NCBI GenBank assembly: GCA_002433895.1 | Contig: DJJA01000003.1 | Span: forward strand, 175,788-239,787 | DNA from: Candidatus Gottesmanbacteria bacterium UBA6580 | Lineage (GTDB): Bacteria; Patescibacteriota; Microgenomatia; UBA10105; UBA927 | Length of the DNA stretch: 64,000 bases | Reading direction: 5' to 3' | Shown here: in pieces, positions 15,946-59,710 of the stretch | Position numbering within the stretch: the first letter of the stretch is position 1 | Layout of the letters: each line of letters opens with the position of its first letter | Notes under the pieces: generated by a model | What the model was told of the DNA's origin: nothing | Seen by the model: only the letters and a program-made list of their open reading frames with translations | Databases searched by the model: none | Position numbers and translations under genes: made by a program

Positions 15946-16153
15946 TATTAAGGCCAGTTTGCTCCCTAGCCCTAAGACTATTATACTGCCTAATTTTAAA
16001 GCTATTTTAACAGCGATTACTAACTCCGCTTATATGGGTGAGATGCGTGCTAGGTGGAACGAAATTAAAAAGTTACGCCAAGAACCAAAATTAGCACTAC
16101 AAGCTAGTATTTGAGGCTAAAGTTGGACAGATTGGACACATATAAAAAAGGCT

Positions 16154-16573: not shown

Positions 16574-16590
16574 CAACGAATATAGGACCC

Positions 16591-17184
16591 CTATTTTTTA
16601 GTAAACACTAATTTACCCCTTGTTTTCCTGTTTTCATCATTGGAGTAATATCCCTCAAGTTTCTTGTTATTTATTACATCTAAATATGTAAAACCCTCGT
16701 GCATACCACCAGATACTGAGTTAAGTAAGGTTTTTGAGCGAGCCTTACTCCGATAAGCATAAACTAAAAACCATTTACCATTTTCCTTTTGTTTGAGCCT
16801 AGCAAAATAACTTTCAAAGTCTGAACTATTGCCAAAGTCACCTTCAATGTATAAGGTTGAGTAGCTTTGAGTTATTGTAGCGATACCTGAGCCCTTTTTG
16901 CCATTATTAAATGTACTTTCATATTTTATTTGCCAACTACCAGTTAATACTGGGTACTCATAAAAACCGACTAGTTTACACAACAAAAATGCCAACCATT
17001 GTTCTTTCCAAAGCCATTTATCCCAAGCGTAATATAACCCATAAATTATGAAGCTCACAGTTCCAACTGACGCAATGAATGAAGCAATGCCATTTCCTAA
17101 AATCCCCCCTATCCATTTAGCTATAACTTGGATTAACGCAACTAATATTACGATTGAGGTGATGTATTTTTGTTGATCTTTCAT
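16591..17184 (-). CDS. 2-TM plus C-terminal beta-rich domain protein, candidate Cap15-like CBASS effector
   Basis: 197 aa. It has two N-terminal TM helices (ITSIVILVALIQVIAKWIGGILG..., ASVGTVSFIIYGLYYAW) and a roughly 130-aa beta-rich C-terminal domain. It overlaps the upstream nucleotidyltransferase gene by 4 nt. Confidence 0.45.
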   Translation of the reverse strand: MKDQQKYITSIVILVALIQVIAKWIGGILGNGIASFIASVGTVSFIIYGLYYAWDKWLWKEQWLAFLLCKLVGFYEYPVLTGSWQIKYESTFNNGKKGSGIATITQSYSTLYIEGDFGNSSDFESYFARLKQKENGKWFLVYAYRSKARSKTLLNSVSGGMHEGFTYLDVINNKKLEGYYSNDENRKTRGKLVFTKK

Positions 17185-18020: not shown

Positions 18021-18021
18021 A

Positions 18022-19251
18022 TTAGTTATTAAATGTTTTAGCTAAAACTGCTTGGGTTAGTTTTGATACCTTTGCTTCCGCGGCCTCAATTTGCTTTTCA
18101 ACTTTATCTGCAAGCTCAAAATAGCTTTTTACCCTTTTTACTATTTCCTTCTGTTCTTCCAGAATTGGAATTTCAATGGGCAAGTTTCTCAAATCCTCCA
18201 AGTTTATCCCTGTATATGCAACTCCCTTCTGTACGTTTGCTAGCCAATATTGTGAAACAGTTGACCCAATATAATATGCGATAAAATCTGGGAAAACTTT
18301 GCTTTTATCTACTGGGACTACTGCTACCTCGCGGGAAACGTTCCATCCCTTCATTTCAGTTGGGACAGCCACGACACCACCTAGCGTTCCACGCACGTTA
18401 ACCAATACCTCACCGCCCATTAGTATCGTCCTTGAGTAACTTGACGATAAAGTAGGTGAAATTCGTTTTAGTCCATTTAATTCAAAATTCAACCATCGGA
18501 CATTACTTGTTCTAAGACACGGAGTCCCATCTTCAATATGTTCTCCCAACTTAATCACACCATAACTTATACCTTTACCTTTTTCGCATAATTCACCCAA
18601 TGCTTTATTTGCCCATACACTATTTAAGTCTTTTATCGTTGACAGCTGTTTCTTCCGCCAATCCTCGGTAAGTTTTCCGGTAATCGCCGCAGTTAAAATT
18701 GCTTGACGAAAATTATTGAGCTGATTTTTAGCACTAGTTAACTTACTAGCAGTTTTATGGATTGAAATAATTTGGTTATTCAGTAAATCGGCAATTTTAT
18801 TTTGAGTTGTTACATCTGGCAACTTTATTGGGATTGTTTTCATTGCAGATTGTGTTAGTTTCAATCTGGTTGTACCTGCAACATAGTCACTAAAATCAAA
18901 ATAATCCAAGTAGTATTTAATAAACCGATTATTTGAAATATCTTTTCTTGCCCTTAAAACGTGTGCGTGATTATTTACCCAACTTTTGCCGTTGATTATG
19001 TACGCGATTGGCTTGGATTTATCCAAAAAGGGGGCGCCATCTTCGCCCAGAAGCACCAATTCCTCATCAAAAATATAATCGTTAATCCAACCTACCTGAC
19101 CTGTTGCTCCATAATAGGGTACCTCACCAATTCTTTTACTTCTGTCATTTGAGTTAATTGGCACCCTTTGGCCATCTAAAATATCAACACAATCTTTAAG
19201 TTGGTATTCCTTCCAACCATTGTTATTTAGTACCGTCTGTGAATTCTGCAT
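18022..19251 (-). CDS. hsdS: Type I restriction-modification specificity subunit HsdS
   Basis: Two target-recognition domains are separated by the conserved central helix (NKIADLLNNQIISIHKTASKLTSAKNQLNNFRQAILTAAITGKL). The C-terminal conserved repeat is present (LEEQKEIVKRVKSYFELADKVEKQIEAAEAKVSKLTQAVLAKTF). Confidence 0.85.
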   Translation of the reverse strand: MQNSQTVLNNNGWKEYQLKDCVDILDGQRVPINSNDRSKRIGEVPYYGATGQVGWINDYIFDEELVLLGEDGAPFLDKSKPIAYIINGKSWVNNHAHVLRARKDISNNRFIKYYLDYFDFSDYVAGTTRLKLTQSAMKTIPIKLPDVTTQNKIADLLNNQIISIHKTASKLTSAKNQLNNFRQAILTAAITGKLTEDWRKKQLSTIKDLNSVWANKALGELCEKGKGISYGVIKLGEHIEDGTPCLRTSNVRWLNFELNGLKRISPTLSSSYSRTILMGGEVLVNVRGTLGGVVAVPTEMKGWNVSREVAVVPVDKSKVFPDFIAYYIGSTVSQYWLANVQKGVAYTGINLEDLRNLPIEIPILEEQKEIVKRVKSYFELADKVEKQIEAAEAKVSKLTQAVLAKTFNN

Positions 19252-20644
19252 ATATTTTTTCCAAGCTATGTGTAGCTTCCTTTAGTTCAGACAGTACGCT
19301 TTTAATAAGTTCTTCAGGTTTGCCAATATCATCACCATTTTCAATATCTTCGTCTTTAATCCACTTAAAACCATCCAACTTGTAATGCTTTTCTTTAACC
19401 TGAGCGATGGTAAACATTTTCCAACGATTTTCTTTGGAGTCAGCTTCTTTACGCGGTGATTGACCATTAGGATTGTCGCCGTAACACTTTTCAAACCCCT
19501 CAAAATGTTTGTGGGTTAGCGGCCTATCTTTAACCGTTATTCCCGGTACATTAGTGCGCGCATCATAAATCCACACGTTTTCCGTGGGTATTCCTTTGGT
19601 AAAAAACACTACGTTGGCTTTAACACCTTGGCTATAAGGGGTAAACGTACCGTTAGGTAAACGTAAAATTGTGTGCAGGTTGCAATCCTGCATCAAAATC
19701 TTAAACACTTCTGCCGCTTGGTCGCCGAAAAGCACGTTGTCGGGCAGTACAACCGCCGCACGGCCTCCCGGTTTAAGGATGGTAAGGATATGTTGCGCGA
19801 AGTTTAGCTGTTTATTGCTTGTTGCAACGGTAAAGTCCTGCCGCTCCGGTACTTGGTTAGCCCCCTTAGTGCCAAATGGCGGGTTTGTCAGTACCACATC
19901 GTACCTGTCACCGCGGTCAGGCTCATAAATGCTGTCGCCTAATCGTATGTTGGAAATAATACCGTGCAGGTATAGGTTCATTAACGCTAACCTGCGTGGC
20001 CTTGCTACTAGCTCCGTGCCATAATAAGTTTTTTCCCTTATACGCTTAATGTCTTCGCGGTTAATTGCACCTTTGCTTTGGTGCATTAACCACTCATAGG
20101 CGCTTAACAAAAATCCACCTGTACCTGCGGCTGGGTCACATATCGTAAAGTCTTTTATTTCCCTTGGGTCGGGTTTCATTACATTGACTATTGCTTGGAT
20201 TAGGACACGGGGAGTGAAGTATTGCCCTGCGCCCTTTTTACCCTCGGCGGCTGATTTTTCTAGTAAACCCTCGTAGGCTTGGGCTTTAACATCAATGTTT
20301 AACCCCGACCAATCAATTTCATCAATAAGGTCAATCAAACGTTTAAGGTTTACTGGTTTGGTGAACTTAGATAGCGCTTCAACAAAAATCGCCCCAAGTA
20401 AACCTTCTTGTCGTGCTAAACCACGCAATAGCTCACTATAAAAATCAATTAACTCAGTGCCAGATTTGGATTTAAGCACTTCCCACGAGTACTTCTTAGG
20501 TATGTCTGCACCCTTTTCCTCCGCCATTTTCAAAAAAAGCAAATAGGTAAGTTGTTCCACATAGTCACCATAATCCATACCGTCGTGCCGGAGTACGTGG
20601 CAGTAACCCCATAATTTGTTAACAATGTTTGTATTAGTTTGCAT
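19223..20644 (-). CDS. hsdM: Type I R-M N6-adenine DNA methyltransferase HsdM
   Basis: LTNPPFGTK (NPPF motif IV), the SAM-binding motif CDPAAGTGGFL, and the HsdM N-terminal domain are present. Confidence 0.9.
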   Translation of the reverse strand: MQTNTNIVNKLWGYCHVLRHDGMDYGDYVEQLTYLLFLKMAEEKGADIPKKYSWEVLKSKSGTELIDFYSELLRGLARQEGLLGAIFVEALSKFTKPVNLKRLIDLIDEIDWSGLNIDVKAQAYEGLLEKSAAEGKKGAGQYFTPRVLIQAIVNVMKPDPREIKDFTICDPAAGTGGFLLSAYEWLMHQSKGAINREDIKRIREKTYYGTELVARPRRLALMNLYLHGIISNIRLGDSIYEPDRGDRYDVVLTNPPFGTKGANQVPERQDFTVATSNKQLNFAQHILTILKPGGRAAVVLPDNVLFGDQAAEVFKILMQDCNLHTILRLPNGTFTPYSQGVKANVVFFTKGIPTENVWIYDARTNVPGITVKDRPLTHKHFEGFEKCYGDNPNGQSPRKEADSKENRWKMFTIAQVKEKHYKLDGFKWIKDEDIENGDDIGKPEELIKSVLSELKEATHSLEKIYAEFTDGTK

Positions 20645-23336
20645 AGGCGTATACCTGTGGCATCGTCGTATTTAATTGGGTAATAAATGGCAACAATCTG
20701 TCGTCAAAATCCGCGTTAATACGCTTAAAACTTCCACCTAAATCTGTAAATATCGGCATTTCATCAAAGTCCTCCTTATCAATGGTTAAGTTTTCAGCCA
20801 AATGTAGTTTTATAAGCTCAATCCATTGTTCCTGTTTTTCATTTAACTTTTGTTTTCCAATAACCTTTTCAACCGCAAGGTCAACCCGTTCTTTGGCTGA
20901 CAATAACGGCTCGTCTTTGGCGGCGTGTTTGACCATTGAAATAATGTCTGCCAAGGGGTATTTATAAGCACGGCGCAAGTTGTCTTCAGTAAATCGCTCA
21001 GGTTGTTTGGATAGTGAGGTGCGCAATTCTGTTAAGGCTTTGGTATTCCACCCTTGGGGCTTACTTAACACAATGCTTATCGCCTCAATATGCTCGGGGT
21101 TATCTTTTACAAACCGCTCAAACTGTTTTAGGTAATCCTCAGGCTTTAGTTCGCGCCCGTCGGTGGTCCTAAAGACAAACTCGGATGTAACTGTGTCTTC
21201 CTGCTCAATCGCCCTTATAAAGCGTTTAGGCGGCCTTGGGTAGTTTTTAAGTAGGTCAATAAAGTTCGGGTCTGTCAGCGTCTTTAATGTGCCAACCCTA
21301 TCCTCACTCAACATATCCGGCAACTTTTTGGCAAACGCGCTTACATCCCCATCGGGTATAAAGTTGGCAAACATTTCCCGCCCTTCAGCGGTGGTATTTT
21401 TAGCAATGCGTTGCAGTCGTTTTACCAAACAGCGTGTGTTGTACTCAACCTCAATGTTGTCGTTTATAGCTTTTATAATTTCTTCAATACTTCTTGTTGG
21501 GTTGGTTGGTGTTACTTGGGTTATACCAGTGCTATTCTTAAATGCCTCAAGCAATGTTCCATCAAAACAATCAAACACGGTAAAGTGTGTTTTTGGCGGT
21601 GTTCCTAAACCGTTAGGGAAGTTTGTGCAAAGACGTGTACCGCGCCCAAGCATTTGCTCAAATAAGATACGGGACTTAACCGGCCGTAAAAACACGATGT
21701 TTTCAATTGAGGGTACATCAATACCGGTTGATAACATATCAACGGTAACTGCAATATGCGGTTCAGGTCTATTCCTAAACTCCTTTATGCGGGTTAATGG
21801 CCTATCCACGGTTGGTGAACCGGTAATTTTCTGTACAAAGGCATCCCCTCGGCCAAATGTATCGCGGCAAATATCAACTAACTGGTCGGCGTGTGAAGTA
21901 TGAGCTAAATCGTTATCAGCAAATATAAGCGTTTTGGGAAACCGGCCAAACTCCTTTTCCTGTTCCAAGGCATACTTAGCAAACTCCTGTATGATTTTGC
22001 GGTTGCTGTCTGGTGCTGTAATATCCCGTTCAACGTCAGCCACATCAAAATGTCGTTCGTCCTCCAATAAATCAAGTTGTTGTGCGCCGGTTTGTGTATC
22101 AACCTGTTCAACTTCCTCGCCTTCTTTTAGGGTAATGCCTTGTATGCGTACACCTGATGCTATCTTTACCGCGTCATAATCAACCAAATATCCATCTTGC
22201 ACAGCCCGCTCATAAGTGTAGCGGTATGCAATTTCCTTAAAGTAACTGGTGGTGTGGGCGGCAGGTGTAGCAGTTAAGCCTATCTTTGTGGCGTCAAAGT
22301 GGTCCAATACTCCGCGCCATTTACTTACTTCGTGGCTTGTATAACCCCTGTGGCACTCATCAGCAATAATCGTGTCAAACGCGTTAATCGGCATTTCAAT
22401 TTTGTCTGCATCATCATCTGGGTCGTAGTCGCCGCTATAACTAAACATACCCTCACGGCCATACAGGTTTATTTGCATCCGTTGGATGGTTGAAATATAC
22501 ACAAACACTTGGTTACCGTCAGGGTCAGTTAAATAGCCTGTGGGAATGACATTAAAATCAACCTTTTCATTGGCCTCAAAATCGTCTACCTTAAAACGTT
22601 GGCTATACACTTGGTAAATCTGGTTAAACTTTAGGCCGTTTTCGGCTTCATACGCGGCAAACTCCATTACTGCTTGGGCGGCAAGGGCTTTTCTGTCAAC
22701 CAAAAACAAAACGCGCTTACTAACACCGGACTTTAGCAGGCGGTAAACTAACGAGGCAATTGTGTAGGTTTTACCCGTACCGGTTGCCATAGCAATCAGC
22801 ATTGACCGTTTATTTTCAGTAATGTTTTTTTCAATCGCTGTTATAGCCTCACGTTGGTAGTGGCGGAGCTTACTATTGTTCGGTGGATTGGCAGTAAACC
22901 AACGTGCGTTACTTTGCGTGTCGCTAGTTAGGTACTCAATTAACGCTTTAGGCGTATGGAACTCCTGTACTTGGCGTGAGCGGCTTGGGGTAATGCGCAA
23001 ATCCTCATACCAAATAACTTCACCATTAGTGGAGTAAATAAACGGGACTGTTAAACCTTGTTGTTGTGCACCTTTAACATAACGATGGGCTTGCTGTAAG
23101 ACGTTTTGCGGACCAAGGCTTATCTTTTTTGCCTCAACAAACGCAATTAACTTACCATTTGCAAATAAGGCATAATCCGCCGGTCCGGTAGTGGTCATAT
23201 ATTCGGTAACCGCTACCTTATGCAAGGTTGAAGTATCCATCCCCTCCTTATAGGGGATTATCTTATCCCAACCAGCCTTTTTTAATTTATCGTCAATCCA
23301 CTTTTTACGAGTGGCTTGCTCGTCAATAATATCCAT
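20634..23336 (-). CDS. hsdR: Type I R-M restriction endonuclease/helicase subunit HsdR
   Basis: 900 aa. The N-terminal nuclease domain is followed by SF2 helicase motifs (MATGTGKTYT Walker A, DECHRG DEAH box). Confidence 0.9.
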   Translation of the reverse strand: MDIIDEQATRKKWIDDKLKKAGWDKIIPYKEGMDTSTLHKVAVTEYMTTTGPADYALFANGKLIAFVEAKKISLGPQNVLQQAHRYVKGAQQQGLTVPFIYSTNGEVIWYEDLRITPSRSRQVQEFHTPKALIEYLTSDTQSNARWFTANPPNNSKLRHYQREAITAIEKNITENKRSMLIAMATGTGKTYTIASLVYRLLKSGVSKRVLFLVDRKALAAQAVMEFAAYEAENGLKFNQIYQVYSQRFKVDDFEANEKVDFNVIPTGYLTDPDGNQVFVYISTIQRMQINLYGREGMFSYSGDYDPDDDADKIEMPINAFDTIIADECHRGYTSHEVSKWRGVLDHFDATKIGLTATPAAHTTSYFKEIAYRYTYERAVQDGYLVDYDAVKIASGVRIQGITLKEGEEVEQVDTQTGAQQLDLLEDERHFDVADVERDITAPDSNRKIIQEFAKYALEQEKEFGRFPKTLIFADNDLAHTSHADQLVDICRDTFGRGDAFVQKITGSPTVDRPLTRIKEFRNRPEPHIAVTVDMLSTGIDVPSIENIVFLRPVKSRILFEQMLGRGTRLCTNFPNGLGTPPKTHFTVFDCFDGTLLEAFKNSTGITQVTPTNPTRSIEEIIKAINDNIEVEYNTRCLVKRLQRIAKNTTAEGREMFANFIPDGDVSAFAKKLPDMLSEDRVGTLKTLTDPNFIDLLKNYPRPPKRFIRAIEQEDTVTSEFVFRTTDGRELKPEDYLKQFERFVKDNPEHIEAISIVLSKPQGWNTKALTELRTSLSKQPERFTEDNLRRAYKYPLADIISMVKHAAKDEPLLSAKERVDLAVEKVIGKQKLNEKQEQWIELIKLHLAENLTIDKEDFDEMPIFTDLGGSFKRINADFDDRLLPFITQLNTTMPQVYAYAN

Positions 23337-23350
23337 ACTTATTTTTATCT

Positions 23351-23548
23351 TTACTTTTTATTCTTATTTTCCTCAATGTAACGCTCAATGTCTTCCAATT
23401 TATAGCGCCTATCACCGACACCCCTGCGTGAACCAATACGGATGGAGGGCAATCGTCCTTCATTATCCCAGCGCCTTAATGTTTCGGGGTTTACGCCTAA
23501 AATATCAGCGGCTTGTTTAATTCTTAGTAGTTTAACGACCGGTTTCAT
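23351..23548 (-). CDS. Excisionase/MerR-family HTH DNA-binding protein
   Basis: LRIKQAADILGVNPETLRRWDNEGRLPSIRIG is typical of Xis/HTH_17 proteins. It ends 14 nt before the hsdR start. Confidence 0.6.
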   Translation of the reverse strand: MKPVVKLLRIKQAADILGVNPETLRRWDNEGRLPSIRIGSRRGVGDRRYKLEDIERYIEENKNKK

Positions 23549-23629
23549 AACTTACACATAATTATACATCGTCAGGCTTGTTTTTGCTCCTCCAAAATTC
23601 ACTTTTACTCCAGTAGACTGTCCTTCACT

Positions 23630-23827
23630 ATGAACTACAGGGATTTGATGGCGGAAGCACGGGCGATACATTTTGCTATGCACCACGGTAGCATTACCTA
23701 TGAGGAAGCACAGGTAAAAGTTAAGCCGGTTTTGGAAATACTAAATAGGAAGAATGCCAAGATAGCGAAAAGACACGGAGTAACCCCACGGAAGTTTACA
23801 TTCCAAAGCCTAGGACGAACTTTTTAG
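23630..23827 (+). CDS. Small hypothetical protein (65 aa)
   Basis: ORF only; divergent from the excisionase-like gene. Confidence 0.3.
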   Translation: MNYRDLMAEARAIHFAMHHGSITYEEAQVKVKPVLEILNRKNAKIAKRHGVTPRKFTFQSLGRTF

Positions 23828-24036
23828 AAAAACGTACTTAGGGATGTTTTTAATGCTTTGGCAATTTTTTCCAGCACCTCAAGGGATGGTGTGTACCTGC
23901 CTTGCTCAATATACCCCATATAAACACGACTGACATTAACTTTATCGGCTAAATCATTTTGGGTTAATCCGCACACCTTCCGCCTTTTTTGGATTTTTTT
24001 ACCTAGCACTTTTGGCAATCTGGCATTTTTCCGCAT
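23824..24036 (-). CDS. XRE-family HTH transcriptional regulator
   Basis: LTQNDLADKVNVSRVYMGYIEQGRYTPSLEVLEKIAKAL is a classic Cro/C1 HTH. ORF 23824..24072; the likely start is MRKN at 24036. Confidence 0.65.
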   Translation of the reverse strand: MRKNARLPKVLGKKIQKRRKVCGLTQNDLADKVNVSRVYMGYIEQGRYTPSLEVLEKIAKALKTSLSTFF

Positions 24037-24162
24037 ATTGTAATTGTGGAAAACGCATCGTCCATAATCCACTAAGCCAGACTAAGCATTTAGCCTTAAA
24101 AAGGGCTTGTTTTTATGCTAAGCATCATTTAGCATTATCTTATTGAGGCAAGGAGGTGAAAT

Positions 24163-24450
24163 ATGGACGTATTACTTAAAACAAGGTGTACCAAAGGCCA
24201 CTTAATCGTTTACGCAGATAAGGTTGCAATTGAAGCGCTTAAGCTACTTGGTTATCAACAATCAAACGCACTCGCCTACAAACAGATTACGGGAGTGGAA
24301 GTAAAAATGACCCAACCGGACATACTCGGCTTAGGACAAGCTACGGTAACTATCCATAGCGCTGGTGGCCAAACACTTATAGCTGACAGGGTAAAACTTA
24401 AGGATGCTAAGGAAGTTGAAAAACTAATCCAGGAACGAATTGCCAAATAA
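24163..24450 (+). CDS. Hypothetical protein (95 aa)
   Basis: ORF with RBS ggaggtg. No recognised domain. Confidence 0.35.
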   Translation: MDVLLKTRCTKGHLIVYADKVAIEALKLLGYQQSNALAYKQITGVEVKMTQPDILGLGQATVTIHSAGGQTLIADRVKLKDAKEVEKLIQERIAK

Positions 24451-24525
24451 TAGTGCGTAAATAAGCTCCATTCAATCGTATTCTTCGTCCGTTTTTCTTA
24501 TAATTGTCTTAATAAGGATAAAAAT

Positions 24526-25317
24526 ATGGATAAAAATGACCCTATCATTAGGGCGGAACTTGAGGAAATAAAAAATTGGCTAATAAAAAGTAGCGAGGTT
24601 GAAGTGGATGAAAAACAGGAATTGGTTGTTTCCATCGTTGCTTTAATTACAAACAAGCGGTTTCAACAAAACATACGACAATTACGGAAAAAATACCAAA
24701 TACCAAAGACTTGGTATACGACTGAAAAACAAAATGATTTATATGCTGAATACTTAAAACACTGCAAGGCACACCCCGACGCACCTACGATGCCGTACGA
24801 TGAACCAATTGTGAACCTGTGTAAAAGAATAGGCGTAGACGTAAAAAAGTACTCCGATTTTGTATTGGGCTATTTATACTACGGCTACGTTTTACCGCTT
24901 AAACCCGACCAAGTTGATTGGTATCAGCCGCTTTTTACAAAGGACGAGCATCGTTACAAAGCAAATATTGAGTTAGATTATGGGGACAGCACTGAGGAAA
25001 AGGAAGAAATGGAAATTAAAAAAGGCTATATACGATTTTACGGCGACACTACCCCCAATCAACTTACCCGCTTCATTAAGGATAATTGGCGGGGCATACA
25101 AGCTATCCAGTCACAACTTAAACCTTATCAGCACACGAAAAAACATAGTCAATTTAGGCGTGACATACTTATATATTTATTTCATTTGTTTGGGAATAAA
25201 TCGCCTGAAATAATGGATAAGATAGTCACAGACGAATTGAATTATCCCCTAGATTATGTTGAGGTACGGCAAATAATAAGTGATTTGAAAAATCGGATAA
25301 ACAAAATCCTTCCATAG
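24526..25317 (+). CDS. Hypothetical protein (263 aa)
   Basis: Long ORF in the island regulatory/replication module. No recognised domain. Confidence 0.4.
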   Translation: MDKNDPIIRAELEEIKNWLIKSSEVEVDEKQELVVSIVALITNKRFQQNIRQLRKKYQIPKTWYTTEKQNDLYAEYLKHCKAHPDAPTMPYDEPIVNLCKRIGVDVKKYSDFVLGYLYYGYVLPLKPDQVDWYQPLFTKDEHRYKANIELDYGDSTEEKEEMEIKKGYIRFYGDTTPNQLTRFIKDNWRGIQAIQSQLKPYQHTKKHSQFRRDILIYLFHLFGNKSPEIMDKIVTDELNYPLDYVEVRQIISDLKNRINKILP

Positions 25318-25536
25318 CTTCAGGTGTGAGTAAAACTCGTTAGGTTTTTCTTTATATTTTCCCCTCCATAAATCCGATACTGATGGTGTAAATCAGTATG
25401 GATAAACAGATAAACATCACCAATAAAGATAACAACATAACGCAAGCCGCAGAACAGTGGTTTAACCTTGCCCTAATGTTGATAAAGATTAAACGCCAAC
25501 AAAAGATGGCGCAATTAAAGATAAAGAATAACGACT

Positions 25537-25776
25537 ATGAGCACAGATAAAACTTTTCAAACTGATAACTTCTTATTAGCTACTTTCCTACTTAGTCAGT
25601 CGTGCAACCTCATTTCCATTGACCGCAGTAATGTTCGCCGTATGGTGTTTGCGTTTGAAAATAACTCCCGCCGAAAAACTTTAACTGAAGATTTTATGGC
25701 TTATAAAAGCGCCATTGAGCCACATAGGTTCTTTAGTGCACAGAAGGATTTACGCGCACTAATCCACCAAAGATAG
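25537..25776 (+). CDS. DUF5659-family small protein (common in phages/integrative elements)
   Basis: FQTDNFLLATFLLSQSCNLISIDRSNVRRMVFAFENN matches the DUF5659 N-terminal pattern (F.t.d..LA.fL...g..L..IDr.dp.r.vF.Fe). Confidence 0.45.
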   Translation: MSTDKTFQTDNFLLATFLLSQSCNLISIDRSNVRRMVFAFENNSRRKTLTEDFMAYKSAIEPHRFFSAQKDLRALIHQR

Positions 25777-25810
25777 GTTCAATCCAGTTGAATTAAAGAT
25801 AAAGATAAAA

Positions 25811-26242
25811 ATGAAAAATTACACGAAGATACCAAATGAAATATTAACTCAATCGCAACTTACCATACCAGCTAGGTACTTATACTGCGCATTGCTAAAG
25901 TATTGTGGCAATGACGATAAGTGTTTTCCAAGTCAGCAGACTTTAGGAAAAGACCTTGGAAGGACACCGCGATACGTTAGGGAATTACTAGGGGAACTTA
26001 TAAGCGCCGGTTTGGTTTATAAAAAAAGGCTGGGTTACAACAGGGCAAATACTTATACGGTATCCAAAGACTTAAAGACATACTGGAACCACGGTTCCTA
26101 TCATATCGGTACAGTATTTCCCCTCCATCAAGGAAATACAGTGCCAGATAAAAGTACTTATATAAAAGGAAAAGGTAAAAGGAGTATTAAGGGTTTGGAA
26201 AAAATGCGAAAAGCGTTAATTGAACAAAGGATTATTAAATAG
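25811..26242 (+). CDS. HTH_36-type winged-helix protein (replication-initiator/phage-regulator-like)
   Basis: IPARYLYCALLKYCGNDDKCFPSQQTLGKDLGRTPRYVRELLGELISAGLV is typical of PF13730. Confidence 0.5.
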   Translation: MKNYTKIPNEILTQSQLTIPARYLYCALLKYCGNDDKCFPSQQTLGKDLGRTPRYVRELLGELISAGLVYKKRLGYNRANTYTVSKDLKTYWNHGSYHIGTVFPLHQGNTVPDKSTYIKGKGKRSIKGLEKMRKALIEQRIIK

Positions 26243-26349
26243 GAGTTTACTTTTTATAAACGACTATTTACTATTGAATAATTAAGTATAATTAAATGTA
26301 ATACTATGAGGCAAGATATAAATTATAAATTATCCAACAAGGAGGAAAT

Positions 26350-27852
26350 ATGAAGGACGAAGTATATGTTTATATAAGGGTTTCAACGTCGGAGCAGGCA
26401 GACGAGGGGTTTTCTATTGATAACCAAAAACGAGCCTGTAAGGAGTTTTGCGAGGCACGAGGTTACCACATAAAGCGGATGTTTGTTGAGGATGGGCGAA
26501 GCGCTAGGACTACCGAAAGACCCGCTTTACAGGAAATGCTCAAGGCCTTGGTAGATACGCCAGTTGGCGCAATTGTTATTTATAAGATTGATAGATTTGC
26601 CCGTAACGTAACCGACTTTTCAAGGCTTTATAACGAGTTTAAGACAAAGGGAATACAGCTCATATCAGTAAGCGAGGGCAACTTAAGCGAGGGGACAAGT
26701 TTAGTGCCAAACATTTTTGCCAGTGTTGCGCAATGGGAGAGCGAAGTTAATAGTCAACGAACACGCGATGCGTTAATGCAAAAGTTTAGGGAAGGCTGGC
26801 AACCAACCCCACCCCCTATTGGGTATAGGAGTGTTGGCGCTGACAGGGAACGAAAAACTTGTGAACCAGACCCATACACTGCACCGATAATACGGGAGCT
26901 ATTTGAGCTATATTCAACCGGCAACTACTCAATTTATGAGTTACAAAATTGGTTAGCCGAACGGGATATTGTTAGTAAAACTGGCACACCCATAGGTCAC
27001 AGTGTAATTGGAACAATACTTAATAATCGGTTTTATTATGGTTGGATTAGCTGGCACGGTGAGGGGAAAACGGGCAAACATATGCCAATTATTAGTAAGG
27101 ACTTATTTGATACGTGCCAATATGTATTAGCAAAACACCGTAACTTCCTAACACGTAATCGCATTCACCAGTTTTTACTCCGCGGGTTCGTACACTGTGC
27201 TGAGTGTGGCCAACGATATACCGCGGAGTGGCATTTTAAGCCTAGATTTACTAAACGAAACGGCAAGATTGCTTATTACCATTGCCCCAAGATGAACCGC
27301 AATGGTTGCCCTGCGCCATACGTGGAGGTGGGTGATCTTGAAAAGTTGGTATTCGACACTGTAAAAGGTGTGCAATTTAGCCAAGATTTTATTGATGCTG
27401 TGGTTGATAAAGCGCGTAGATTTGTTGATGACAGTAGGAAGCGTGCAGGTGGCGATATGCAAGCGTGTATTAACCAGCGCACTGCACTTGAGTTTAAGCG
27501 CAACAAACTTGAAGACGCCTTACTAGATAACACGATTGACCGTACTGTTTTTAAGCGCAAGCACGATGAAATTGAAGCGCAGATTAGGTTAATTGACGAC
27601 CGAACACGCGAGATTGAAGCACAAAGTCACGTTGACATTAAACTTGTTGAGGACGTGCTTAACTTTACCCGCGATGTAGGCAGAACATACGACGAAGCGC
27701 CTGACTTTTTGAAACGACATTTTTTACGCTTCTTTTTTGAAAAGATAATGGTAAAAGATAAGAAGATAGCGGAAGTTATTTACACACCAATAATAGCGCC
27801 GTTAGTGGCAAACCACTCGGTTATAATAAAAAACCTTATGCTCCCCCGGTAG
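26350..27852 (+). CDS. Large serine recombinase (integrase)
   Basis: Resolvase catalytic domain (VYVYIRVSTSEQADEGFSIDNQ...IYKIDRFARN), recombinase domain, and a Zn-ribbon (CAECGQRYTAEWH...YYHCPKMNRNGC). 500 aa. The last 12 nt overlap the tRNA-Asn 3' end on the opposite strand. Confidence 0.9.
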   Translation: MKDEVYVYIRVSTSEQADEGFSIDNQKRACKEFCEARGYHIKRMFVEDGRSARTTERPALQEMLKALVDTPVGAIVIYKIDRFARNVTDFSRLYNEFKTKGIQLISVSEGNLSEGTSLVPNIFASVAQWESEVNSQRTRDALMQKFREGWQPTPPPIGYRSVGADRERKTCEPDPYTAPIIRELFELYSTGNYSIYELQNWLAERDIVSKTGTPIGHSVIGTILNNRFYYGWISWHGEGKTGKHMPIISKDLFDTCQYVLAKHRNFLTRNRIHQFLLRGFVHCAECGQRYTAEWHFKPRFTKRNGKIAYYHCPKMNRNGCPAPYVEVGDLEKLVFDTVKGVQFSQDFIDAVVDKARRFVDDSRKRAGGDMQACINQRTALEFKRNKLEDALLDNTIDRTVFKRKHDEIEAQIRLIDDRTREIEAQSHVDIKLVEDVLNFTRDVGRTYDEAPDFLKRHFLRFFFEKIMVKDKKIAEVIYTPIIAPLVANHSVIIKNLMLPR

Positions 27853-27912
27853 GATTCGAACCTACAACCGTCTTCTTAACAGGAAGCTGCGCTACCGTTG
27901 CGCCACAGGGGA
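27841..27912 (-). tRNA. tRNA-Asn (anticodon GTT)
   Basis: Folded by eye. Acceptor TCCCCTG/CGGGGGA (one G-U), D-arm GCGC-AACGGTA-GCGC, anticodon loop CTGTTAA (GTT), T-arm GTAGG-TTCGAAT-CCTAC, discriminator G. CCA is not encoded. Confidence 0.75.
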
Positions 27913-27930
27913 ATGTGTTTCCTCTAAGTG

Positions 27931-27968
27931 CTACCTCCACCAGTTGGCGGAGCGCTCAGGGGAACGAT
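27931..27968. repeat. Hairpin repeat R1 (imperfect palindrome plus diverged tRNA-Asn 5'-end-like tail)
   Basis: R1 is ctacctccaccagttggcggagcgctcaggggaacgat; compare R2 at 28233-28270. It encodes the C-terminal RSPERSANWWR* of the GIY-YIG protein. Confidence 0.55.
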
Positions 27969-28212: not shown

Positions 28213-28232
28213 GGCTATATTATATCGCTGCG

Positions 28233-28270
28233 CTACCTCCGCCAGCTGGCGGAGCGCCACAGGGGAATGT
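28233..28270. repeat. Hairpin repeat R2 (perfect palindrome ctccgccAGCTggcggag) fused to an exact copy of the first 14 nt of tRNA-Asn plus 4 nt of 5' flank
   Basis: R2 is ctacctccgccagctggcggagcgccacaggggaatgt. The tail gcgccacaggggaatgt is identical to 27900-27916. Confidence 0.6.
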
Positions 28271-55800: not shown

Positions 55801-57201
55801 ATGAATGGATTAGCGAGTGAGTTGGCGTCCGAAAAAAAACATAATGTATTGGTCTACATCTTTAATATGTCGGAAGATGTATGGCCGTTTATTTGCGCCA
55901 TGTCAGACGCAAATGCAAAAAGCGCGGAGATAGTCGAGAATGGCTACCTGGGAGACTCACGGATGTTTCAGTTTGCTGGAGAAAAAGACGAAGTCCTCTA
56001 TATCACTCCTCAGGCAGTAAGTGCGCAATTTTTGGATTATTTCCATACGCTGTTTCCCGATACGCATCTTACGGTTGTTACCACAGGGCAACACAGCGGA
56101 GTAATATGTGAAGACATTCAGCATGATCCGTCCATAATGAATGTGCTCATTGAAGCGGCAAATTCCACAAAAAAATTGACGATGACGAGTTATAGCGCCA
56201 GTCAGCCGTTTTTACACCTTGTTCGCGCGTTGCGGGACCGAGGACTGACGATCGCAACCCCGGAGGCGCCGGACGAAGAAGACGCGTGGACGGTGAATTT
56301 TTTCGGGAGTAAATCCGGTATCCGGCAACTGGCGCAGCAAAGCGGACACGAAGAACCGGATTTTAAAATGGCAGATGGCGTGATTTGTTTCGGTATAGAA
56401 GACGCATCAAAAATAGCGGCAATTAGATACGTGAAAGAACAAGGAGTAGTTATCAAAACAAACAAGGGTCACTCCGGAATGGGAGTTGAGATTTTTAGAC
56501 CCGGCGATTTGCCAACGGAGTTTAACGAGTGCCAGAAGAAAATTTTTGACATGCTGAACAAAGACGCGTATTGGCAGCAGTTTCCGATCATTATAGAGAA
56601 ACTTATTCCGGTCAGTATGAGTGTAGCAGGAGGAAATCCGAATGTGGAATTTAAAATTTCCCGTAATGGTCATATAGATTTTTTGTATCAATGTGGAGTG
56701 TTGGTCGATAAAGACGGCGCGTTTCATGGTATAGAGGTGGGGCACGATATTATGCCGGAACGGGTAGCAGCACAAATCAAAGATACAGGGTTTTATATAG
56801 CAGAACGGTTTGCTGCCGCGGGATATCGAGGATATTTTGACGTGGATTGTGTGGCAGGAAGAAACGGCGAAGTATATGTTGCTGAGAGTAACGTGCGGAG
56901 CACGGGCGGAACGTTTGTCTACATGACCGCCGTCGCGTTGTTTGGTGAAAATTTTATGTTTGACACATATCTTTTTTCAAACAACGGATACATGATACCG
57001 CATCTCAAGCATATGACATTCCCTAAATTGCTGGAGCGTCTGTCACCCATACTGTTTAGTAAAGAAACCAAAGAAGGACTAGTACTCACATCGGAAAATC
57101 TGTTGCGTATGCAGAAATTCTCTTTTATTATTTTTGCCAAGACCAAAAAGCGCTCCATGGAAATTGAAGCCCGCATGATAGAGCTCCTCAACAGACAGTA
57201 A
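55801..57201 (+). CDS. ATP-grasp domain protein
   Basis: Glycine-rich loop VVIKTNKGHSGMGV. C-terminal E.N catalytic region (VAESNVRSTGG). Confidence 0.5.
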   Translation: MNGLASELASEKKHNVLVYIFNMSEDVWPFICAMSDANAKSAEIVENGYLGDSRMFQFAGEKDEVLYITPQAVSAQFLDYFHTLFPDTHLTVVTTGQHSGVICEDIQHDPSIMNVLIEAANSTKKLTMTSYSASQPFLHLVRALRDRGLTIATPEAPDEEDAWTVNFFGSKSGIRQLAQQSGHEEPDFKMADGVICFGIEDASKIAAIRYVKEQGVVIKTNKGHSGMGVEIFRPGDLPTEFNECQKKIFDMLNKDAYWQQFPIIIEKLIPVSMSVAGGNPNVEFKISRNGHIDFLYQCGVLVDKDGAFHGIEVGHDIMPERVAAQIKDTGFYIAERFAAAGYRGYFDVDCVAGRNGEVYVAESNVRSTGGTFVYMTAVALFGENFMFDTYLFSNNGYMIPHLKHMTFPKLLERLSPILFSKETKEGLVLTSENLLRMQKFSFIIFAKTKKRSMEIEARMIELLNRQ

Positions 57202-57242
57202 GTTCCATATTCATCATAATTGCAGTAAAATAAGCCTATCTC

Positions 57243-57327
57243 GGGTGTGTAGCTCAGTGGTACCTGCCCGCCATCGCAAGCATGAGCTTTTGCTCAGGCG
57301 TTGCAGGCGGGGAGCGCTATCCTTAAG
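57243..57327 (+). pseudogene. tRNA-Ile(TAT)-like 5' fragment with 49-nt insertion in the D-loop
   Basis: GGGTGTGTAGCTCAGTGGTA, then the insert cctgcccgcc...gcaggcggg, then GAGCGCTATCCTTAAG. No 3' half. Confidence 0.45.
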
Positions 57328-57337
57328 TTATGAATAC

Positions 57338-57373
57338 GGGTGTGTAGCTCAGTGGTAGAGCGCTATCCTTATA
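57338..57373 (+). other. 5' half of split tRNA-Ile(TAT) copy A (acceptor GGGTGTG) ending in the anticodon loop at position 37
   Basis: GGGTGTGTAGCTCAGTGGTAGAGCGCTATCCTTATA. It pairs with the 3' half at 57538-57576 (acceptor CACACCC-A-CCA). Confidence 0.55.
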
Positions 57374-57440
57374 GCGAAAACTAATATTATATTGTTGTTT
57401 TCGATATATCGGGTACGAACATTGATAAGTGGGCACAAAG

Positions 57441-57512
57441 GGGCCAGTAGCTCAGTGGCAGAGCGCTATCCTTATAAGATAGATGTCCTTGGTCCGATCC
57501 CAAGCTGGCCCA
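57441..57512 (+). tRNA. tRNA-Ile (anticodon TAT; AUA-decoding), intact copy B nested between the halves of copy A
   Basis: Acceptor GGGCCAG/CTGGCCC, D-arm GCTC-AGTGGCA-GAGC, anticodon stem CTATC/GATAG with loop CTTATAA, T-arm CTTGG-TCCGATC-CCAAG, discriminator A. It is flanked by a 10-bp inverted repeat: cgggtacgaa at 57411-57419 and ttcgtacccg at 57523-57532. Confidence 0.7.
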
Positions 57513-57537
57513 CTAGCATAATTTCGTACCCGCTATA

Positions 57538-57576
57538 AGATAGATGTCCTTGGTCCGATCCCAAGCACACCCACCA
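57538..57576 (+). other. 3' half of split tRNA-Ile(TAT) copy A, with encoded CCA
   Basis: AGATAGATGTCCTTGGTCCGATCCCAAGCACACCCACCA. CACACCC complements GGGTGTG of 57338-57344. Confidence 0.55.
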
Positions 57577-57595
57577 AAAATTACAACGTGACTGT

Positions 57596-57626
57596 TCTAA
57601 GGCAGATGTCTCTGGTCTGACCTAAA
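57596..57626 (+). pseudogene. Degenerate tRNA 3'-half-like fragment
   Basis: ctaaggcagatgtctctggtctgacctaaag compared with taagatagatgtccttggtccgatcccaag. Confidence 0.35.
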
Positions 57627-57637
57627 GTGTACTTACT

Positions 57638-58129
57638 ATGAAAACCGTATCAATAGAAGAAATTGAAACGATCGCAACAAAGTTAGCGCAGGAAAAAAAA
57701 CACTGGCATTATCATCTTTTGACTCCGACGTGCCAATTTAATGAAACAAATCGTCACGCCTTCGTTCTGGAGAATAATTCCGATCAAGAATATTACGTCT
57801 ATTATTCCGAAGAACCGGCGATGGCTTTAGGAAAGCGGTTACTGAGTGTTTTGCATGGGGAAGATATCCTTACCACAGCTGCTGATGTGGTGTCACCCGC
57901 CGTCGCAAAGATATTACGTAAAGCCCAACAGCTAAACACTGCCGGAAAATTCTGGCACCATCATGTCTTTTTTCCAACATGCAGATATAACCGTCATCCC
58001 GGAAAGTGGAATATCATTTTTGAAGATCAGCAGGAAAAGGGAGTGTTGGAAAGCTTGAGTGATAGTAATCCAAAACAAGATCAGAAGGAAATCGAACGGC
58101 TTTATTATCAGCAGAAAACGCTTACATAA
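57638..58129 (+). CDS. Hypothetical protein with internally duplicated HWHxH...PTC motif
   Basis: KKHWHYHLLTPTCQFNETNRHAFVLEN and GKFWHHHVFFPTCRYNRHPGKWNIIFED are two homologous half-domains, possibly metal-binding. Confidence 0.4.
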   Translation: MKTVSIEEIETIATKLAQEKKHWHYHLLTPTCQFNETNRHAFVLENNSDQEYYVYYSEEPAMALGKRLLSVLHGEDILTTAADVVSPAVAKILRKAQQLNTAGKFWHHHVFFPTCRYNRHPGKWNIIFEDQQEKGVLESLSDSNPKQDQKEIERLYYQQKTLT

Positions 58130-58134
58130 TTTTT

Positions 58135-58671
58135 TTGAAACATATGCAAGAACAGGTTGTCCTGGTTGATGAGCAAAATAATCCGATAGGAACAGCGGAT
58201 AAAGATACGGTGCACACGACTGCTACACCGCTCCATCGGGCGTTTTCTCTTTTTTTGTTTAATTCCAGGGGGCAGGTGCTGTTGACCAAGCGTGCGGCAA
58301 CAAAAAAAACTTTTCCCGGCGTGTGGACAAATACCGTATGCGGACACTTGTCTCCCGATGAAGACACCGTGAGCGCGGCAACGCGAAGGCTTTCAGAAGA
58401 ACTTGGCATTACAGGGGTCACGGTAAAAGAAGTAGCTCCCTATCGTTACCGGTTTGCCGACCGAAACGGTATCGTGGAAAATGAAATTTGTCCGATCACC
58501 GTAGCGACCTATGACGGTGACCCGCTTCCTCATAAAGATGAAGTAGATGAATGGAAGTGGGTGGATTGGAAAGTTTTTTTACAAGATATCCGCGATAACC
58601 CAGAGCCTTACTCACCATGGAGCAGGGAAGAGGCAGCAATTCTTACGACGAAACTTCCACTGAAAGGTTAG
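58135..58671 (+). CDS. idi: Isopentenyl-diphosphate delta-isomerase, type 1 (Nudix fold)
   Basis: LHRAFSLFLFNSRGQVLLTKRAATKKTFPGVWTNTVCGHLSPDE matches the IDI-1 WTNTCCSHP region, and a Nudix-like E-rich segment is present. Confidence 0.7.
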   Translation: MKHMQEQVVLVDEQNNPIGTADKDTVHTTATPLHRAFSLFLFNSRGQVLLTKRAATKKTFPGVWTNTVCGHLSPDEDTVSAATRRLSEELGITGVTVKEVAPYRYRFADRNGIVENEICPITVATYDGDPLPHKDEVDEWKWVDWKVFLQDIRDNPEPYSPWSREEAAILTTKLPLKG

Positions 58672-59710
58672 GTGAGGCAATAATGCTGCCCCAGTGTTCC
58701 GGAGTTCCCTGGAAATACGCGTACGCCCCAATATAGACTGCATTATCCGTGCACAGCGAAACCGGTGGCACGTGAAGTGAGATGTGTTCGTTTGTGAGTG
58801 CTTCCTGAAATTTTTCGCGAAGCCTTAGGTTAGCAGATACACCTCCGGAAAGAAGTATGGATTGTGCGTTGTGTTTTTGTGCCGCATGAAGTGTTTTTTT
58901 GACCAGTACATCAGTGATCGTTTCCTGTACTTCATGTGACATATAGCGGATCGTTTCCTCGGTAAGCCGGTTGTTTGTTTTACATGTATTTACTTCACGG
59001 AGAATGGCAGTTTTTAGTCCGCTGAAAGAAAAATTAAATTCATTGTCATGATCAAGCATGGGCCGGGGTAGCCGTATAGGATCGGCAAGCGCATCTGCCT
59101 GTTGGAATTTTTTGGCTGCTTCCTGAATACTGACGCCACCACCGTGACCAAATCCTAATAACCGCGCGGTTTTATCAAAACATTCGCCTGCGGCATCGTC
59201 CAGTGTGCCACCTAACCAGGTGAGGGTGTTGGGCGACTGCATGAGATAGAGCTCTGTGTGACCGCCGGAAACGACCAGTGAAATCGCCGGGAATTGTATT
59301 TCGTTACTTTGTTTCGTAACAACGAAGTTGGCATACATATGTGCCAGCACGTGGTTTACCGGGATGATCGGTTTACCTGTAACCATGGCAATTGTTTTTG
59401 CGGTTTCTACCCCTACCAGCAGGCTGCCGATAAGTCCCGGGCCAACGGCGATGGCAATGGTATCAATGTTGTCATTAATCATGCGCAGCAGCGAAGGTTT
59501 TTCTCCGCCATAAAATGGCGCGAGCGCTTCGGTAATAACCGGGATAATGTAGTCTAGCTGCATCCGGGCGGCTACCTCAGGGACGATGCCGCCGTATTTT
59601 TCGTGCATTTCTTTTGATGTTGAGACAACATTTGAAATTATTGTCGTGCCGTTTTCTATGACCGCCGCGGCGGTTTCATCACAAGATGATTCAATAGCGA
59701 GAGTTCTCAT
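58643..59710 (-). CDS. tsaD: tRNA N6-adenosine threonylcarbamoyltransferase TsaD (Kae1/Gcp)
   Basis: MRTLAIESSCDETAAAVIENG... and metal-binding HxxxH (NHVLAHMYANF). 355 aa. Confidence 0.9.
   Translation of the reverse strand: MRTLAIESSCDETAAAVIENGTTIISNVVSTSKEMHEKYGGIVPEVAARMQLDYIIPVITEALAPFYGGEKPSLLRMINDNIDTIAIAVGPGLIGSLLVGVETAKTIAMVTGKPIIPVNHVLAHMYANFVVTKQSNEIQFPAISLVVSGGHTELYLMQSPNTLTWLGGTLDDAAGECFDKTARLLGFGHGGGVSIQEAAKKFQQADALADPIRLPRPMLDHDNEFNFSFSGLKTAILREVNTCKTNNRLTEETIRYMSHEVQETITDVLVKKTLHAAQKHNAQSILLSGGVSANLRLREKFQEALTNEHISLHVPPVSLCTDNAVYIGAYAYFQGTPEHWGSIIASPNLSVEVSS

Follow-up and report, generated by a model that had tools for sequence, protein, structure and literature searches.

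Is a tRNA gene that is interrupted in its anticodon loop by a second, complete tRNA gene of the same isotype an intron-containing gene, a split gene or a scar in the DNA? The question is raised by a tRNA-Ile(UAU) locus of Candidatus Gottesmanbacteria bacterium UBA6580, located in a 64,000-nucleotide stretch of contig DJJA01000003.1 (the whole of this stretch is referred to below as the window). Here, the halves of one gene (copy A) enclose a 164-nt insert that carries an intact gene with a different acceptor stem (copy B), with further tRNA fragments on both sides. A first-pass annotation, made from the letters alone, had offered two readings, namely a nested or duplicated tRNA scar and an intron-like or split tRNA, and had pointed to covariance models and related genomes as ways to tell them apart. 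Our analysis indicates that the arrangement most likely arose as a scar in the DNA, through repeated replacement of the gene at a tRNA hot spot, rather than as a bacterial tRNA intron. Of the two readings, the scar or duplication fits the states seen in relatives, while the intron-like pre-tRNA or split tRNA is not supported. The locus is an unusual, recurrent form of tRNA-gene scar, in which a same-isotype allele occupies the anticodon loop within 164 bp, and which is found across species and linked to GIY-YIG genes.

Anatomy of the locus

The locus extends from the stop codon of a gene for a 466-aa ATP-grasp-like protein (57201) to the start of a 163-aa open reading frame (ORF; 57638), and its features are summarized in Table 1. 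Each element listed by the first-pass annotation for the halves of copy A and the insert between them is present, with coordinates only slightly refined. The 10-bp repeat around copy B was recovered as a perfect inverted repeat, the upstream 5' fragment with a 49-nt palindromic insert in its D-loop corresponds to what we term frag1, and a decayed 3' half is indeed found downstream. The last four bases of the copy A 5' half, TATA, are duplicated at 57534-57537, at the start of the 3' half; counted without this overlap, the 3' half spans 57538-57576, CCA included. The repetitive nature of the locus is reflected in probes of 30 and 32 nt from the tRNA body, which gave exactly 2 exact matches each, as compared to 0 expected by chance, and in the perfect inverted-repeat matches of the 393-nt stretch, with three of 9 nt and one of 10 nt as compared to 0.29 and 0.07 in shuffled sequences. 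The 49-nt hairpin is found in a single copy within the window. A promoter is presumed to lie within the leader, where only a weak sigma-70-like match is seen.

The locus was found, base for base, in at least five independent metagenome assemblies from different samples (in full in L001, L002, L003 and L007, and in part in L004-L006). Its identity in independent assemblies shows that it did not arise as an artefact of assembly. Its repeats do, however, contain the break points of several assemblies.

Table 1 Features of the tRNA-Ile(UAU) locus, the tRNA-Asn locus and neighboring genes in the window. Identity refers to the corresponding segment of locus L028.
Feature	Position	Strand	Description	Identity to L028
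Leader, 5' of the first tRNA-like sequence	57202-57242	+	gtaaaataagcctat recognizably common to L012	80%
frag1, part 1	57243-57262	+	tRNA-Ile positions 1-21, GGGTGTGTAGCTCAGTGGTA; same sequence as the copy A 5' end	
Hairpin, 49 nt	57263-57311	+	GC-rich, at the end of the frag1 D-loop; RNA fold -27 kcal/mol, z -3.4	
frag1, part 2	57312-57325	+	GAGCGCTATCCTTA; D-stem 3' strand, anticodon-stem 5' strand and start of loop	
Linker, 12 nt	57326-57337	+	Follows frag1	
Copy A, 5' half	57338-57373	+	Acceptor GGGTGTG, D-arm, anticodon-stem 5' strand, CTTATA	36/36
Insert, 164 nt	57374-57537	+	In the copy A anticodon loop; contains copy B	
Left spacer of insert	57374-57440	+	Hairpin loop replaced in L028	74%
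Hairpin at left side of insert	57370-57381 / 57397-57408	+	TATAGCGAAAAC / GTTTTCGATATA	
Left arm of the repeat bracketing copy B	57405-57434	+	Core CGGGTACGAA at 57410-57419	
Copy B	57441-57512	+	Intact tRNA-Ile(UAU); acceptor GGGCCAG/CTGGCCC, discriminator A, CCA not encoded	72/73
Alpha spacer	57513-57533	+	Follows copy B; holds right arm TTCGTACCCG (57523-57532)	57%
Copy A, 3' half	57534-57576	+	TATA overlap, then AGATAG...CACACCC-A-CCA	40/40
Beta spacer	57577-57595	+	Alignable with alpha spacers and with the L026 spacer	
Outermost 3' partial copy	57596-57636	+	Decayed; 63% identical to the reference copy	
Perfect inverted repeat, 10 bp	57410-57419 / 57523-57532		CGGGTACGAA / TTCGTACCCG	
Perfect inverted repeat	57368-57376 / 57531-57539		CTTATAGCG / CGCTATAAG	
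tRNA-Asn(GUU)	27840-27912	-	Intact; called by ARAGORN and Rfam	
N2	27928-27964	-	tRNA-Asn 5' fragment, 14 nt upstream of the intact tRNA-Asn; 18-nt palindrome TCCGCCAACTGGTGGAGG replaces the D-loop	
GIY-YIG ORF, 93 aa	27931-28212	-	Directly upstream of tRNA-Asn, runs into N2; tblastn with the L015 protein E 1.5e-9; Pfam PF01541	
N1	28227-28267	-	tRNA-Asn 5' fragment (positions 1-26), upstream of the ORF; palindrome TCCGCCAGCTGGCGGAGG replaces the D-loop	
ORF, 664 aa	50815-52809	+	No Pfam match	
VirD4/TraG-like gene, 782 aa	53279-55627	+	Coupling-protein homologue (DUF8128 and weak TrwB/TraG matches)	
ORF, 163 aa	57638-58129	+	No Pfam match; two similar W-H-x-H...C motifs	

Copy B is the only tRNA called

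ARAGORN called a tRNA-Ile(tat) at 57441-57513, namely copy B, which Rfam model RF00005 also recognized with a score of 65.5 bits (E 5.5e-12; the gathering score is 29). While the covariance model thus accepted the fold of copy B, the split copy A was called neither by Rfam nor by ARAGORN, its intron mode included, making copy B the sole tRNA called at the locus. When the halves of copy A were joined in silico, a canonical 75-nt tRNA-Ile(tat) was obtained. Copy B is predicted to be the only functional gene at the locus. The tRNA-Ile(UAU) gene is conserved, with a near-invariant body, in at least ten related Patescibacteria loci. A tRNA-Ile with this anticodon is known from a few bacteria lacking tilS, such as Mycoplasma mobile (PMC3575796). 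On the contig of one related Patescibacterium (L023), two tRNA(CAU) genes are located at 2435-2750, ~2 kb from the tRNA-Ile(UAU) gene; were either of them a tRNA-Ile2(CAU), this would have a bearing on AUA decoding in the group.

The locus in related genomes

Syntenic loci were obtained via homologues of the 163-aa neighbor and by exact-pattern scans of genomes and metagenomes. Scanning the genome collection with the tRNA body yielded six species-level genomes, five of which bear the label Patescibacteria or Candidatus Gottesmanbacteria. The remaining one (L026, CAYUZE010000009.1) is labelled 'uncultured Gammaproteobacteria', yet presents the same gene order; as it shares the ATP-grasp gene and the tRNA-Ile(UAU) locus with Patescibacteria MAG136 (L025), it is probably mis-binned. 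Distant homologues of the 163-aa protein (L016-L022) were also considered, but as they are not syntenic and have no tRNA-Ile beside them, they are uninformative for the locus.

The comparison with relatives suggested by the first-pass annotation proved productive, as ten related Patescibacteria loci present a range of intermediate states. A plain single gene is found behind the same ATP-grasp gene in L024 and L033, and in another context in L023 and L032. In L026, an intact copy A is followed, after a spacer of ~20 nt, by a 3' partial copy with a like acceptor strand (CACACCC), and L031 shows the same form with an allele that we term X (GGGTCAG) and a CTGACCC partial copy, again after ~20 nt. 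L015 and L027 contain a hairpin-bearing 5' fragment (positions 1-17), a 78-aa GIY-YIG ORF, an intact X and a decayed 3' copy. The nest of the window, A[B]A, is found without frag1 in Gottesmanbacteria UBA5942 (L028) and in L030, and when the window is compared with L028, the 94-nt frag1 block (57243-57336/7) stands out as a clean indel. In L025 and L029, a hairpin-bearing copy A 5' half that ends at position 31 is followed by the same left spacer (shared with the window from GATATATCGGG onward) and by copy B, with zero 3' halves; microhomologies at the edges suggest that these two loci are deletion derivatives of a window-like nest. Finally, L012-L014 present an independent nest, with a B-type outer tRNA (GGGCCAG) and an intact inner one (GGGCACG...CCA), in which the whole anticodon arm of the outer tRNA is replaced by an insert flanked by inverted repeats.

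In all three nests (window, L028 and L012), the acceptor stems of the nested copies are unlike, while in the loci with a gene and a 3' copy (L026, L031 and L027) they are alike. The acceptor type of copy B is the resident type in other relatives. Hairpins homologous to the 49-nt hairpin of the window are found in the 5' fragments of L015, L025 and L029, in L015 at another position of the D-arm, and decayed copies orthologous to the outermost one of the window are found in L008, L028 and L015.

The three 3' copies of the window start 61 and 62 nt apart. The alpha spacers, which follow B or X, and the beta spacers, which follow A, align with each other and across species, with the alpha spacer of the window being alignable with spacers of L028, L031, L027 and L015. 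The aligning spacers and the ~61-nt period indicate that the 3' side is made up of tandem units, each comprising tRNA positions 34-76 and a 20-nt trailer. Judged by its sequence, the outermost unit is the oldest and most decayed, and the second copy of L026 corresponds to it.

Identity between the window and L028, given for most segments in Table 1, is 82% in the upstream gene, 55% directly after the copy A 3' half and 62% in the next gene. The downstream gene of the window appears, by eye, nearer to that of L025 than to that of L028. Relatedness switches at 57577, with the left side (57125-57577) resembling L028 and the right side resembling L025 and L008. So sharp a change at the array points to inter-lineage recombination breakpoints at the locus.

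GIY-YIG genes at tRNA loci

The 78-aa ORF of L015 (2603-2839), the stop codon of which overlaps the tRNA at G1, matches the Pfam GIY-YIG domain over residues 1-69 (E 1.8e-17). In L015 and L027, the ORF occupies precisely the interval from the 5' fragment to the intact tRNA, corresponding to the position of the left spacer in the window. As L015 and L027 carry the ORF and L031 does not, at one and the same allele, the presence or absence of the ORF follows the pattern expected of a homing-type selfish gene.

The window contains a second example at its tRNA-Asn gene, where a 93-aa GIY-YIG ORF is accompanied by two tRNA-Asn 5' fragments, N1 and N2 (Table 1). Their palindromes are 18 nt long and GC-rich and have the same ends (CCGCCA...GGCGG) as the 49-nt hairpin at the Ile locus. 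If N1 and N2 were to recombine, a single hairpin-bearing fragment would remain, a few nucleotides upstream of the tRNA, which is the form of frag1. On a Levybacteria contig (L040), a GIY-YIG ORF (1250-1485) is located 62 nt upstream of a tRNA-Lys gene. In each of the three DNA contexts inspected (Ile, Asn and Lys), the GIY-YIG gene thus lies directly upstream of the tRNA and in the same orientation.

The 78-aa family has more than 1,548 homologues at E below 1e-10, with 68-82% identity among the matches listed, and those members that carry a source name are called Patescibacteria-type lineages. Many members are found on very short contigs, as repeats are. A look-up of the 93-aa protein of the window for further genomic copies found one place only, and neither GIY-YIG protein has relatives in viral contigs. 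It is possible, although we consider it rather doubtful, that the 78-aa cassettes form a widespread Patescibacteria family that homes into tRNA genes, leaves hairpin-bearing 5' fragments behind and drives allele replacement. The 78-aa GIY-YIG proteins may represent a class of tRNA-targeting selfish elements that has so far gone undescribed in Patescibacteria.

On its other side, the tRNA-Asn gene is abutted at its 3' end by a low-GC (0.37-0.43) island at ~14000-27852. The island encodes a type I restriction-modification system (HsdR/M/S), a SMODS nucleotidyltransferase, a DUF6602 protein, an HTH protein and a 500-aa large serine recombinase, the gene of which overlaps tRNA-Asn by 13 nt, and probably represents an integrated defence island. 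A search of the window for a displaced 3' fragment of tRNA-Asn found none.

A probable history of repeated allele replacement

We consider it probable that tRNA-Ile(UAU) alleles were repeatedly inserted or replaced at the DNA level at a recombination hot spot, with only copy B being functional. From what is directly observed, namely the anatomy of the locus, its reproducibility, the states of relatives and the GIY-YIG association, we infer the following order of events. A resident copy A (GGGTGTG/CACACCC) would have been located behind the ATP-grasp gene, already with a tandem 3' partial copy, a state that is kept in L026. A 164-bp segment would then have entered the palindromic anticodon loop of copy A (CTTATAAG), with a join showing a 4-bp TATA overlap, and would have brought along a complete foreign allele, copy B, with its own leader and trailer. 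Thereafter, copy B would have been the sole functional gene, with the copy A halves, frag1 and the outer 3' copy being pseudogene fragments.

These events were probably driven by double-strand-break or one-sided-homology recombination, at a tRNA hot spot that small GIY-YIG nuclease cassettes visit. A break in the resident gene, or its invasion, would be repaired with foreign DNA of a related lineage, with one end joined via the homologous tRNA 3' part and the other by an illegitimate join at TATA. The outcome of such repair would be the resident 5' part, followed by the foreign leader, copy B and its trailer, and then the 3' part. In this course of events, frag1 would resemble the solo hairpin-bearing 5' fragment that is left when a GIY-YIG cassette is lost, as can be envisaged at tRNA-Asn.

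Once formed, the nest may be locked. Collapse by recombination between the 5' parts of A and B would fuse GGGTGTG to CTGGCCC, while collapse between their 3' parts would fuse GGGCCAG to CACACCC. The nest probably persists as either collapse gives a mismatched acceptor stem, destroying the only tRNA-Ile(UAU), and as gene conversion keeps the body of A identical to that of B.

This scenario has some weaknesses that need to be considered. The 5' fragments end at tRNA positions 17, about 26, 31 and 35-37, and thus lack a single cut site. The D-arm hairpins are left unexplained by a scar model. Support for the lock comes from seven loci only. A nuclease or integrase gene is absent from the window's own Ile locus, such that the GIY-YIG link is drawn from relatives and from the Asn locus. 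Moreover, the 78-aa protein appears from its sequence to be a GIY-YIG catalytic domain alone, with no recognizable C-terminal DNA-binding domain. Lastly, the copy A halves are identical at 76/76 positions between the window and L028, as against 55-74% identity in the adjacent spacers, and no change is seen at 14 acceptor-stem positions (rough p near 0.02, when the ~25% spacer divergence is taken as the neutral rate). The perfect identity is mostly due, in our view, to copy B serving as gene-conversion donor for the body. Nonetheless, as gene conversion from B covers the body and not the 14 acceptor-stem positions, some constraint on copy A may still exist, and we regard this as the chief objection to an entirely neutral scar. 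Selection on copy A as a conclusion from the window-L028 comparison is in turn weakened, as the whole ~57125-57577 stretch is unusually similar and as copy B can homogenize the body of A.

If the scar reading is true, the locus offers a compact and datable record of an essential single-copy tRNA gene of a reduced genome that was repeatedly overwritten by foreign alleles while its function was never lost. It would also explain the frozen nests, since unlike acceptor stems make collapse lethal. Such loci break metagenome assemblies and may mislead tRNA annotation. Most worth following are the D-arm hairpins and the tRNA-linked GIY-YIG family.

Alternative explanations

Best placed among the alternatives, but unlikely, is a remnant of a classical integrative element, that is, an element with a tyrosine or serine recombinase that entered the anticodon loop of copy A via a TATA core, carried its own tRNA-Ile and was then shrunk by deletions. 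The deletions would have left only copy B and ~90 nt of flank, with copy A never being rebuilt, as in what has been called tRNA-dependent lysogeny. A decayed element of this type would produce the same topology as the repair proposed above. An anticodon stem-loop is a classic att core, here a palindromic one, a 4-bp overlap is seen at both junctions, and the host gene is disrupted with a same-isotype tRNA inside, as described for such elements (PMC10865867). The large serine recombinase island that abuts tRNA-Asn indicates that elements of this type use tRNA genes in this genome, and fragments of the att type, repeating part of the tRNA gene, are present at the Ile locus (direct-repeat families D1 and D2). 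However, neither a recombinase gene nor a remnant of one is found at the Ile site in at least ten related loci, and what L015 and L027 have there instead is a GIY-YIG ORF. Neither recombinase nor island DNA separates the intact gene from the fragments, with the spacers being 12-67 nt long and the flanks being the ATP-grasp gene and the 163-aa protein. The 3' copies are tandem repeats whose spacers are homologous, unlike att fragments with island DNA between them. In addition, shrinkage to 164 bp would be needed, and the junctions of the second nest (L012) are quite different, with the whole anticodon arm replaced.

A role at the RNA level is less likely still. Here, the copy A halves and the inverted repeats would serve as a tRNA-like clamp and as leader-trailer helices that guide or protect the maturation of copy B by RNase P, RNase Z or RNase III, or couple it to expression of the downstream gene. 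In the predicted fold of the 239-nt precursor (dG -81.9 kcal/mol, z -4.07), the outer acceptor stem, D-arm and T-arm are formed and the insert extends the anticodon arm. In both independent nests, the inner tRNA is bracketed by an inverted repeat of 10-15 nt, with unrelated sequences. The copy A halves of the window match those of L028 perfectly, in contrast to the diverging spacers, and some hairpin differences between loci are, in our reading, G-U-compatible on the sense strand. On the other hand, L024 and L033, with a plain gene, and L025 and L029, with a 5' remnant only, manage without a clamp. The left arm of the 10-bp repeat is kept in L025 and L029, where the right arm was deleted, and the repeat is only 8 bp long in L028, with no compensating change. 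Copy B is, moreover, partly mispaired with the leader in the predicted minimum-energy fold. Any covariation would, in addition, be drawn from two or three independent sequences only.

That copy A is a genuine intron-containing or split tRNA is very unlikely. To give a second tRNA-Ile(UAU), the 164-nt insert would have to be removed, for example with RNase P and RNase Z excising copy B and the ends then being trimmed and ligated, or through a further endonuclease. The joined halves do give a flawless tRNA with an encoded CCA, the insert lies in the region that is canonical for introns (37/38), both halves are also conserved in L028, the acceptor, D and T stems of the outer L012 tRNA are perfect, and the predicted precursor folds into an outer cloverleaf. 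The first-pass annotation had further likened the pairing of the insert ends with the anticodon loop to that of intron-containing pre-tRNAs, a comparison that found no support. A bulge-helix-bulge (two 3-nt bulges around a 4-bp helix) is absent from both the minimum-energy and the centroid folds, in which the anticodon stem is predicted to continue into an 8-bp helix with a single bulged C32. Much of the pairing arises as CTTATAAG, which comprises the anticodon loop and G39, is its own reverse complement, with the flanks adding GCG/CGC. A group I core is also missing, as no Rfam group I match was found in the window, L012 or L015, at either gathering or E-value thresholds, and the non-tRNA part of the insert amounts to only 91 nt. 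In L012, non-tRNA sequence stands in place of the outer anticodon arm, joining the outer halves yields no unambiguous 7-nt anticodon loop and ARAGORN in intron mode calls no outer tRNA. At the discriminator of the copy A 3' half, the window has A and L008 has G, this half is wholly lost in L025 and L029, and the function is already supplied by copy B. We know of no bacterial pathway in which ligation follows the trimming of a 67-nt tail at the 3' end and a 20-nt tail at the 5' end.

Most improbable of all is that copy A and the outer tRNA of L012 are two-piece or 'tRNA-as-intron' genes, cut by RNase P and RNase Z at the inner tRNA. The acceptor stem and the extended anticodon helix would keep the halves in contact, and these would be trimmed and ligated or would work as a split molecule; this would be the first bacterial tRNA to mature without a self-splicing intron, and it is both less likely and more radical than homing of the 78-aa cassettes.

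Genomic context

The neighboring genes are of ordinary chromosomal types and their order is kept in relatives, with the VirD4/TraG-like, ATP-grasp, NUDIX, TsaD and VanW genes at the locus and PBPs, SOD and RNR further upstream. The 782-aa and 664-aa genes are conserved beside the ATP-grasp gene, in surroundings that are otherwise housekeeping. The 163-aa ORF is accessory, being absent from L026, L027, L031 and L033, where the gene after the tRNA locus is the NUDIX/IDI-like one. Homologues of the 163-aa protein in other Patescibacteria adjoin Fic, AbiEii, HEPN/nucleotidyltransferase and MazG genes.

Three further possibilities were considered and rejected. The VirD4/TraG-like gene could suggest an integrative conjugative element ending at the tRNA, but the 28-50 kb region encodes housekeeping functions (PBPs, SOD, RNR and HPRT) in a conserved order. 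A phage origin found no support, as a megablast search with 56000-59000 against phage genomes gave no match and the tRNA body pattern had no exact match in viral contigs. The 49-nt hairpin is not a multi-copy element, as the window holds one copy and the five viral-contig matches to a degenerate 19-mer (L034-L038) are chance matches, located inside coding sequence, with neither hairpin nor tRNA.

Comparison with known systems

In the literature searched, no account of an arrangement like that of the window was found, but several known systems share part of the arrangement. In the tRNA-dependent lysogeny of actinobacteriophages, elements disrupt a host tRNA gene and carry a same-isotype replacement (Guerrero-Bustamante & Hatfull 2024, PMC10865867). 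As in the window, where copy A is split at 57373/57538 and not reconstructed, with copy B inside, recombination takes place inside the tRNA gene via a very short core, the gene is not rebuilt and a same-isotype tRNA lies within. The phages, however, are 40-60 kb long and encode a tyrosine integrase, while the insert of the window is 164 bp long, has no recombinase, is found in a Patescibacterium and belongs to a recurrent form of nesting.

The T4 protein SegB is a free-standing GIY-YIG homing endonuclease that recognizes a tRNA T-loop motif, cuts in tRNA genes and is co-inherited with the neighboring tRNAs (PMC2330249), and it drives segmental amplification of a tRNA-containing segment (PMC13096335). 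Similarly, the GIY-YIG gene adjoins tRNA genes in some relatives of the window and is absent from others, and tandem repeats contain tRNA sequence. In contrast to SegB, which has a C-terminal NUMOD3 DNA-binding motif (PMC2330249), the proteins described here comprise 78-93 aa, with the catalytic domain only, and are chromosomal. The Patescibacteria ORFs are, in addition, accompanied by hairpin-bearing tRNA 5' fragments, which are unreported for SegB.

Displaced tRNA gene fragments are found at the ends of islands and prophages (Islander, PMC4383910; prokaryotic tRNA fragments, PMC9897764). These, too, are partial, non-functional copies beside an intact gene that were made by mobile DNA. Classically, however, a whole island separates a single 3' (or 5') fragment from the intact gene, which is a hybrid of host and element, whereas in the window fragments are found on both sides within tens of nucleotides, with a complete foreign allele inside.

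The tRNA introns known from Patescibacteria are of group I, inserted in the anticodon loop and with self-splicing validated in vitro (PMC13011429). The phylum is the same, and there, as here, an anticodon-loop insert causes standard annotation to miss the gene. Yet the insert of the window is too short, has no group I match and contains a tRNA. Archaeal intron-containing and split tRNAs present bulge-helix-bulge junctions. They share with copy A the interruption at 37/38 and the pairable halves, and differ from it in that copy A has a bacterial host, a continuous junction helix and a palindromic loop.

The repair that we propose resembles homology-facilitated illegitimate recombination in natural transformation, in which one homologous anchor is combined with an illegitimate join at a microhomology of 3-10 nt. 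Competence in Patescibacteria is predicted only. An anchor in the tRNA 3' part, combined with a join at TATA, would yield the resident 5' part, the foreign DNA and the anchor, in this order.

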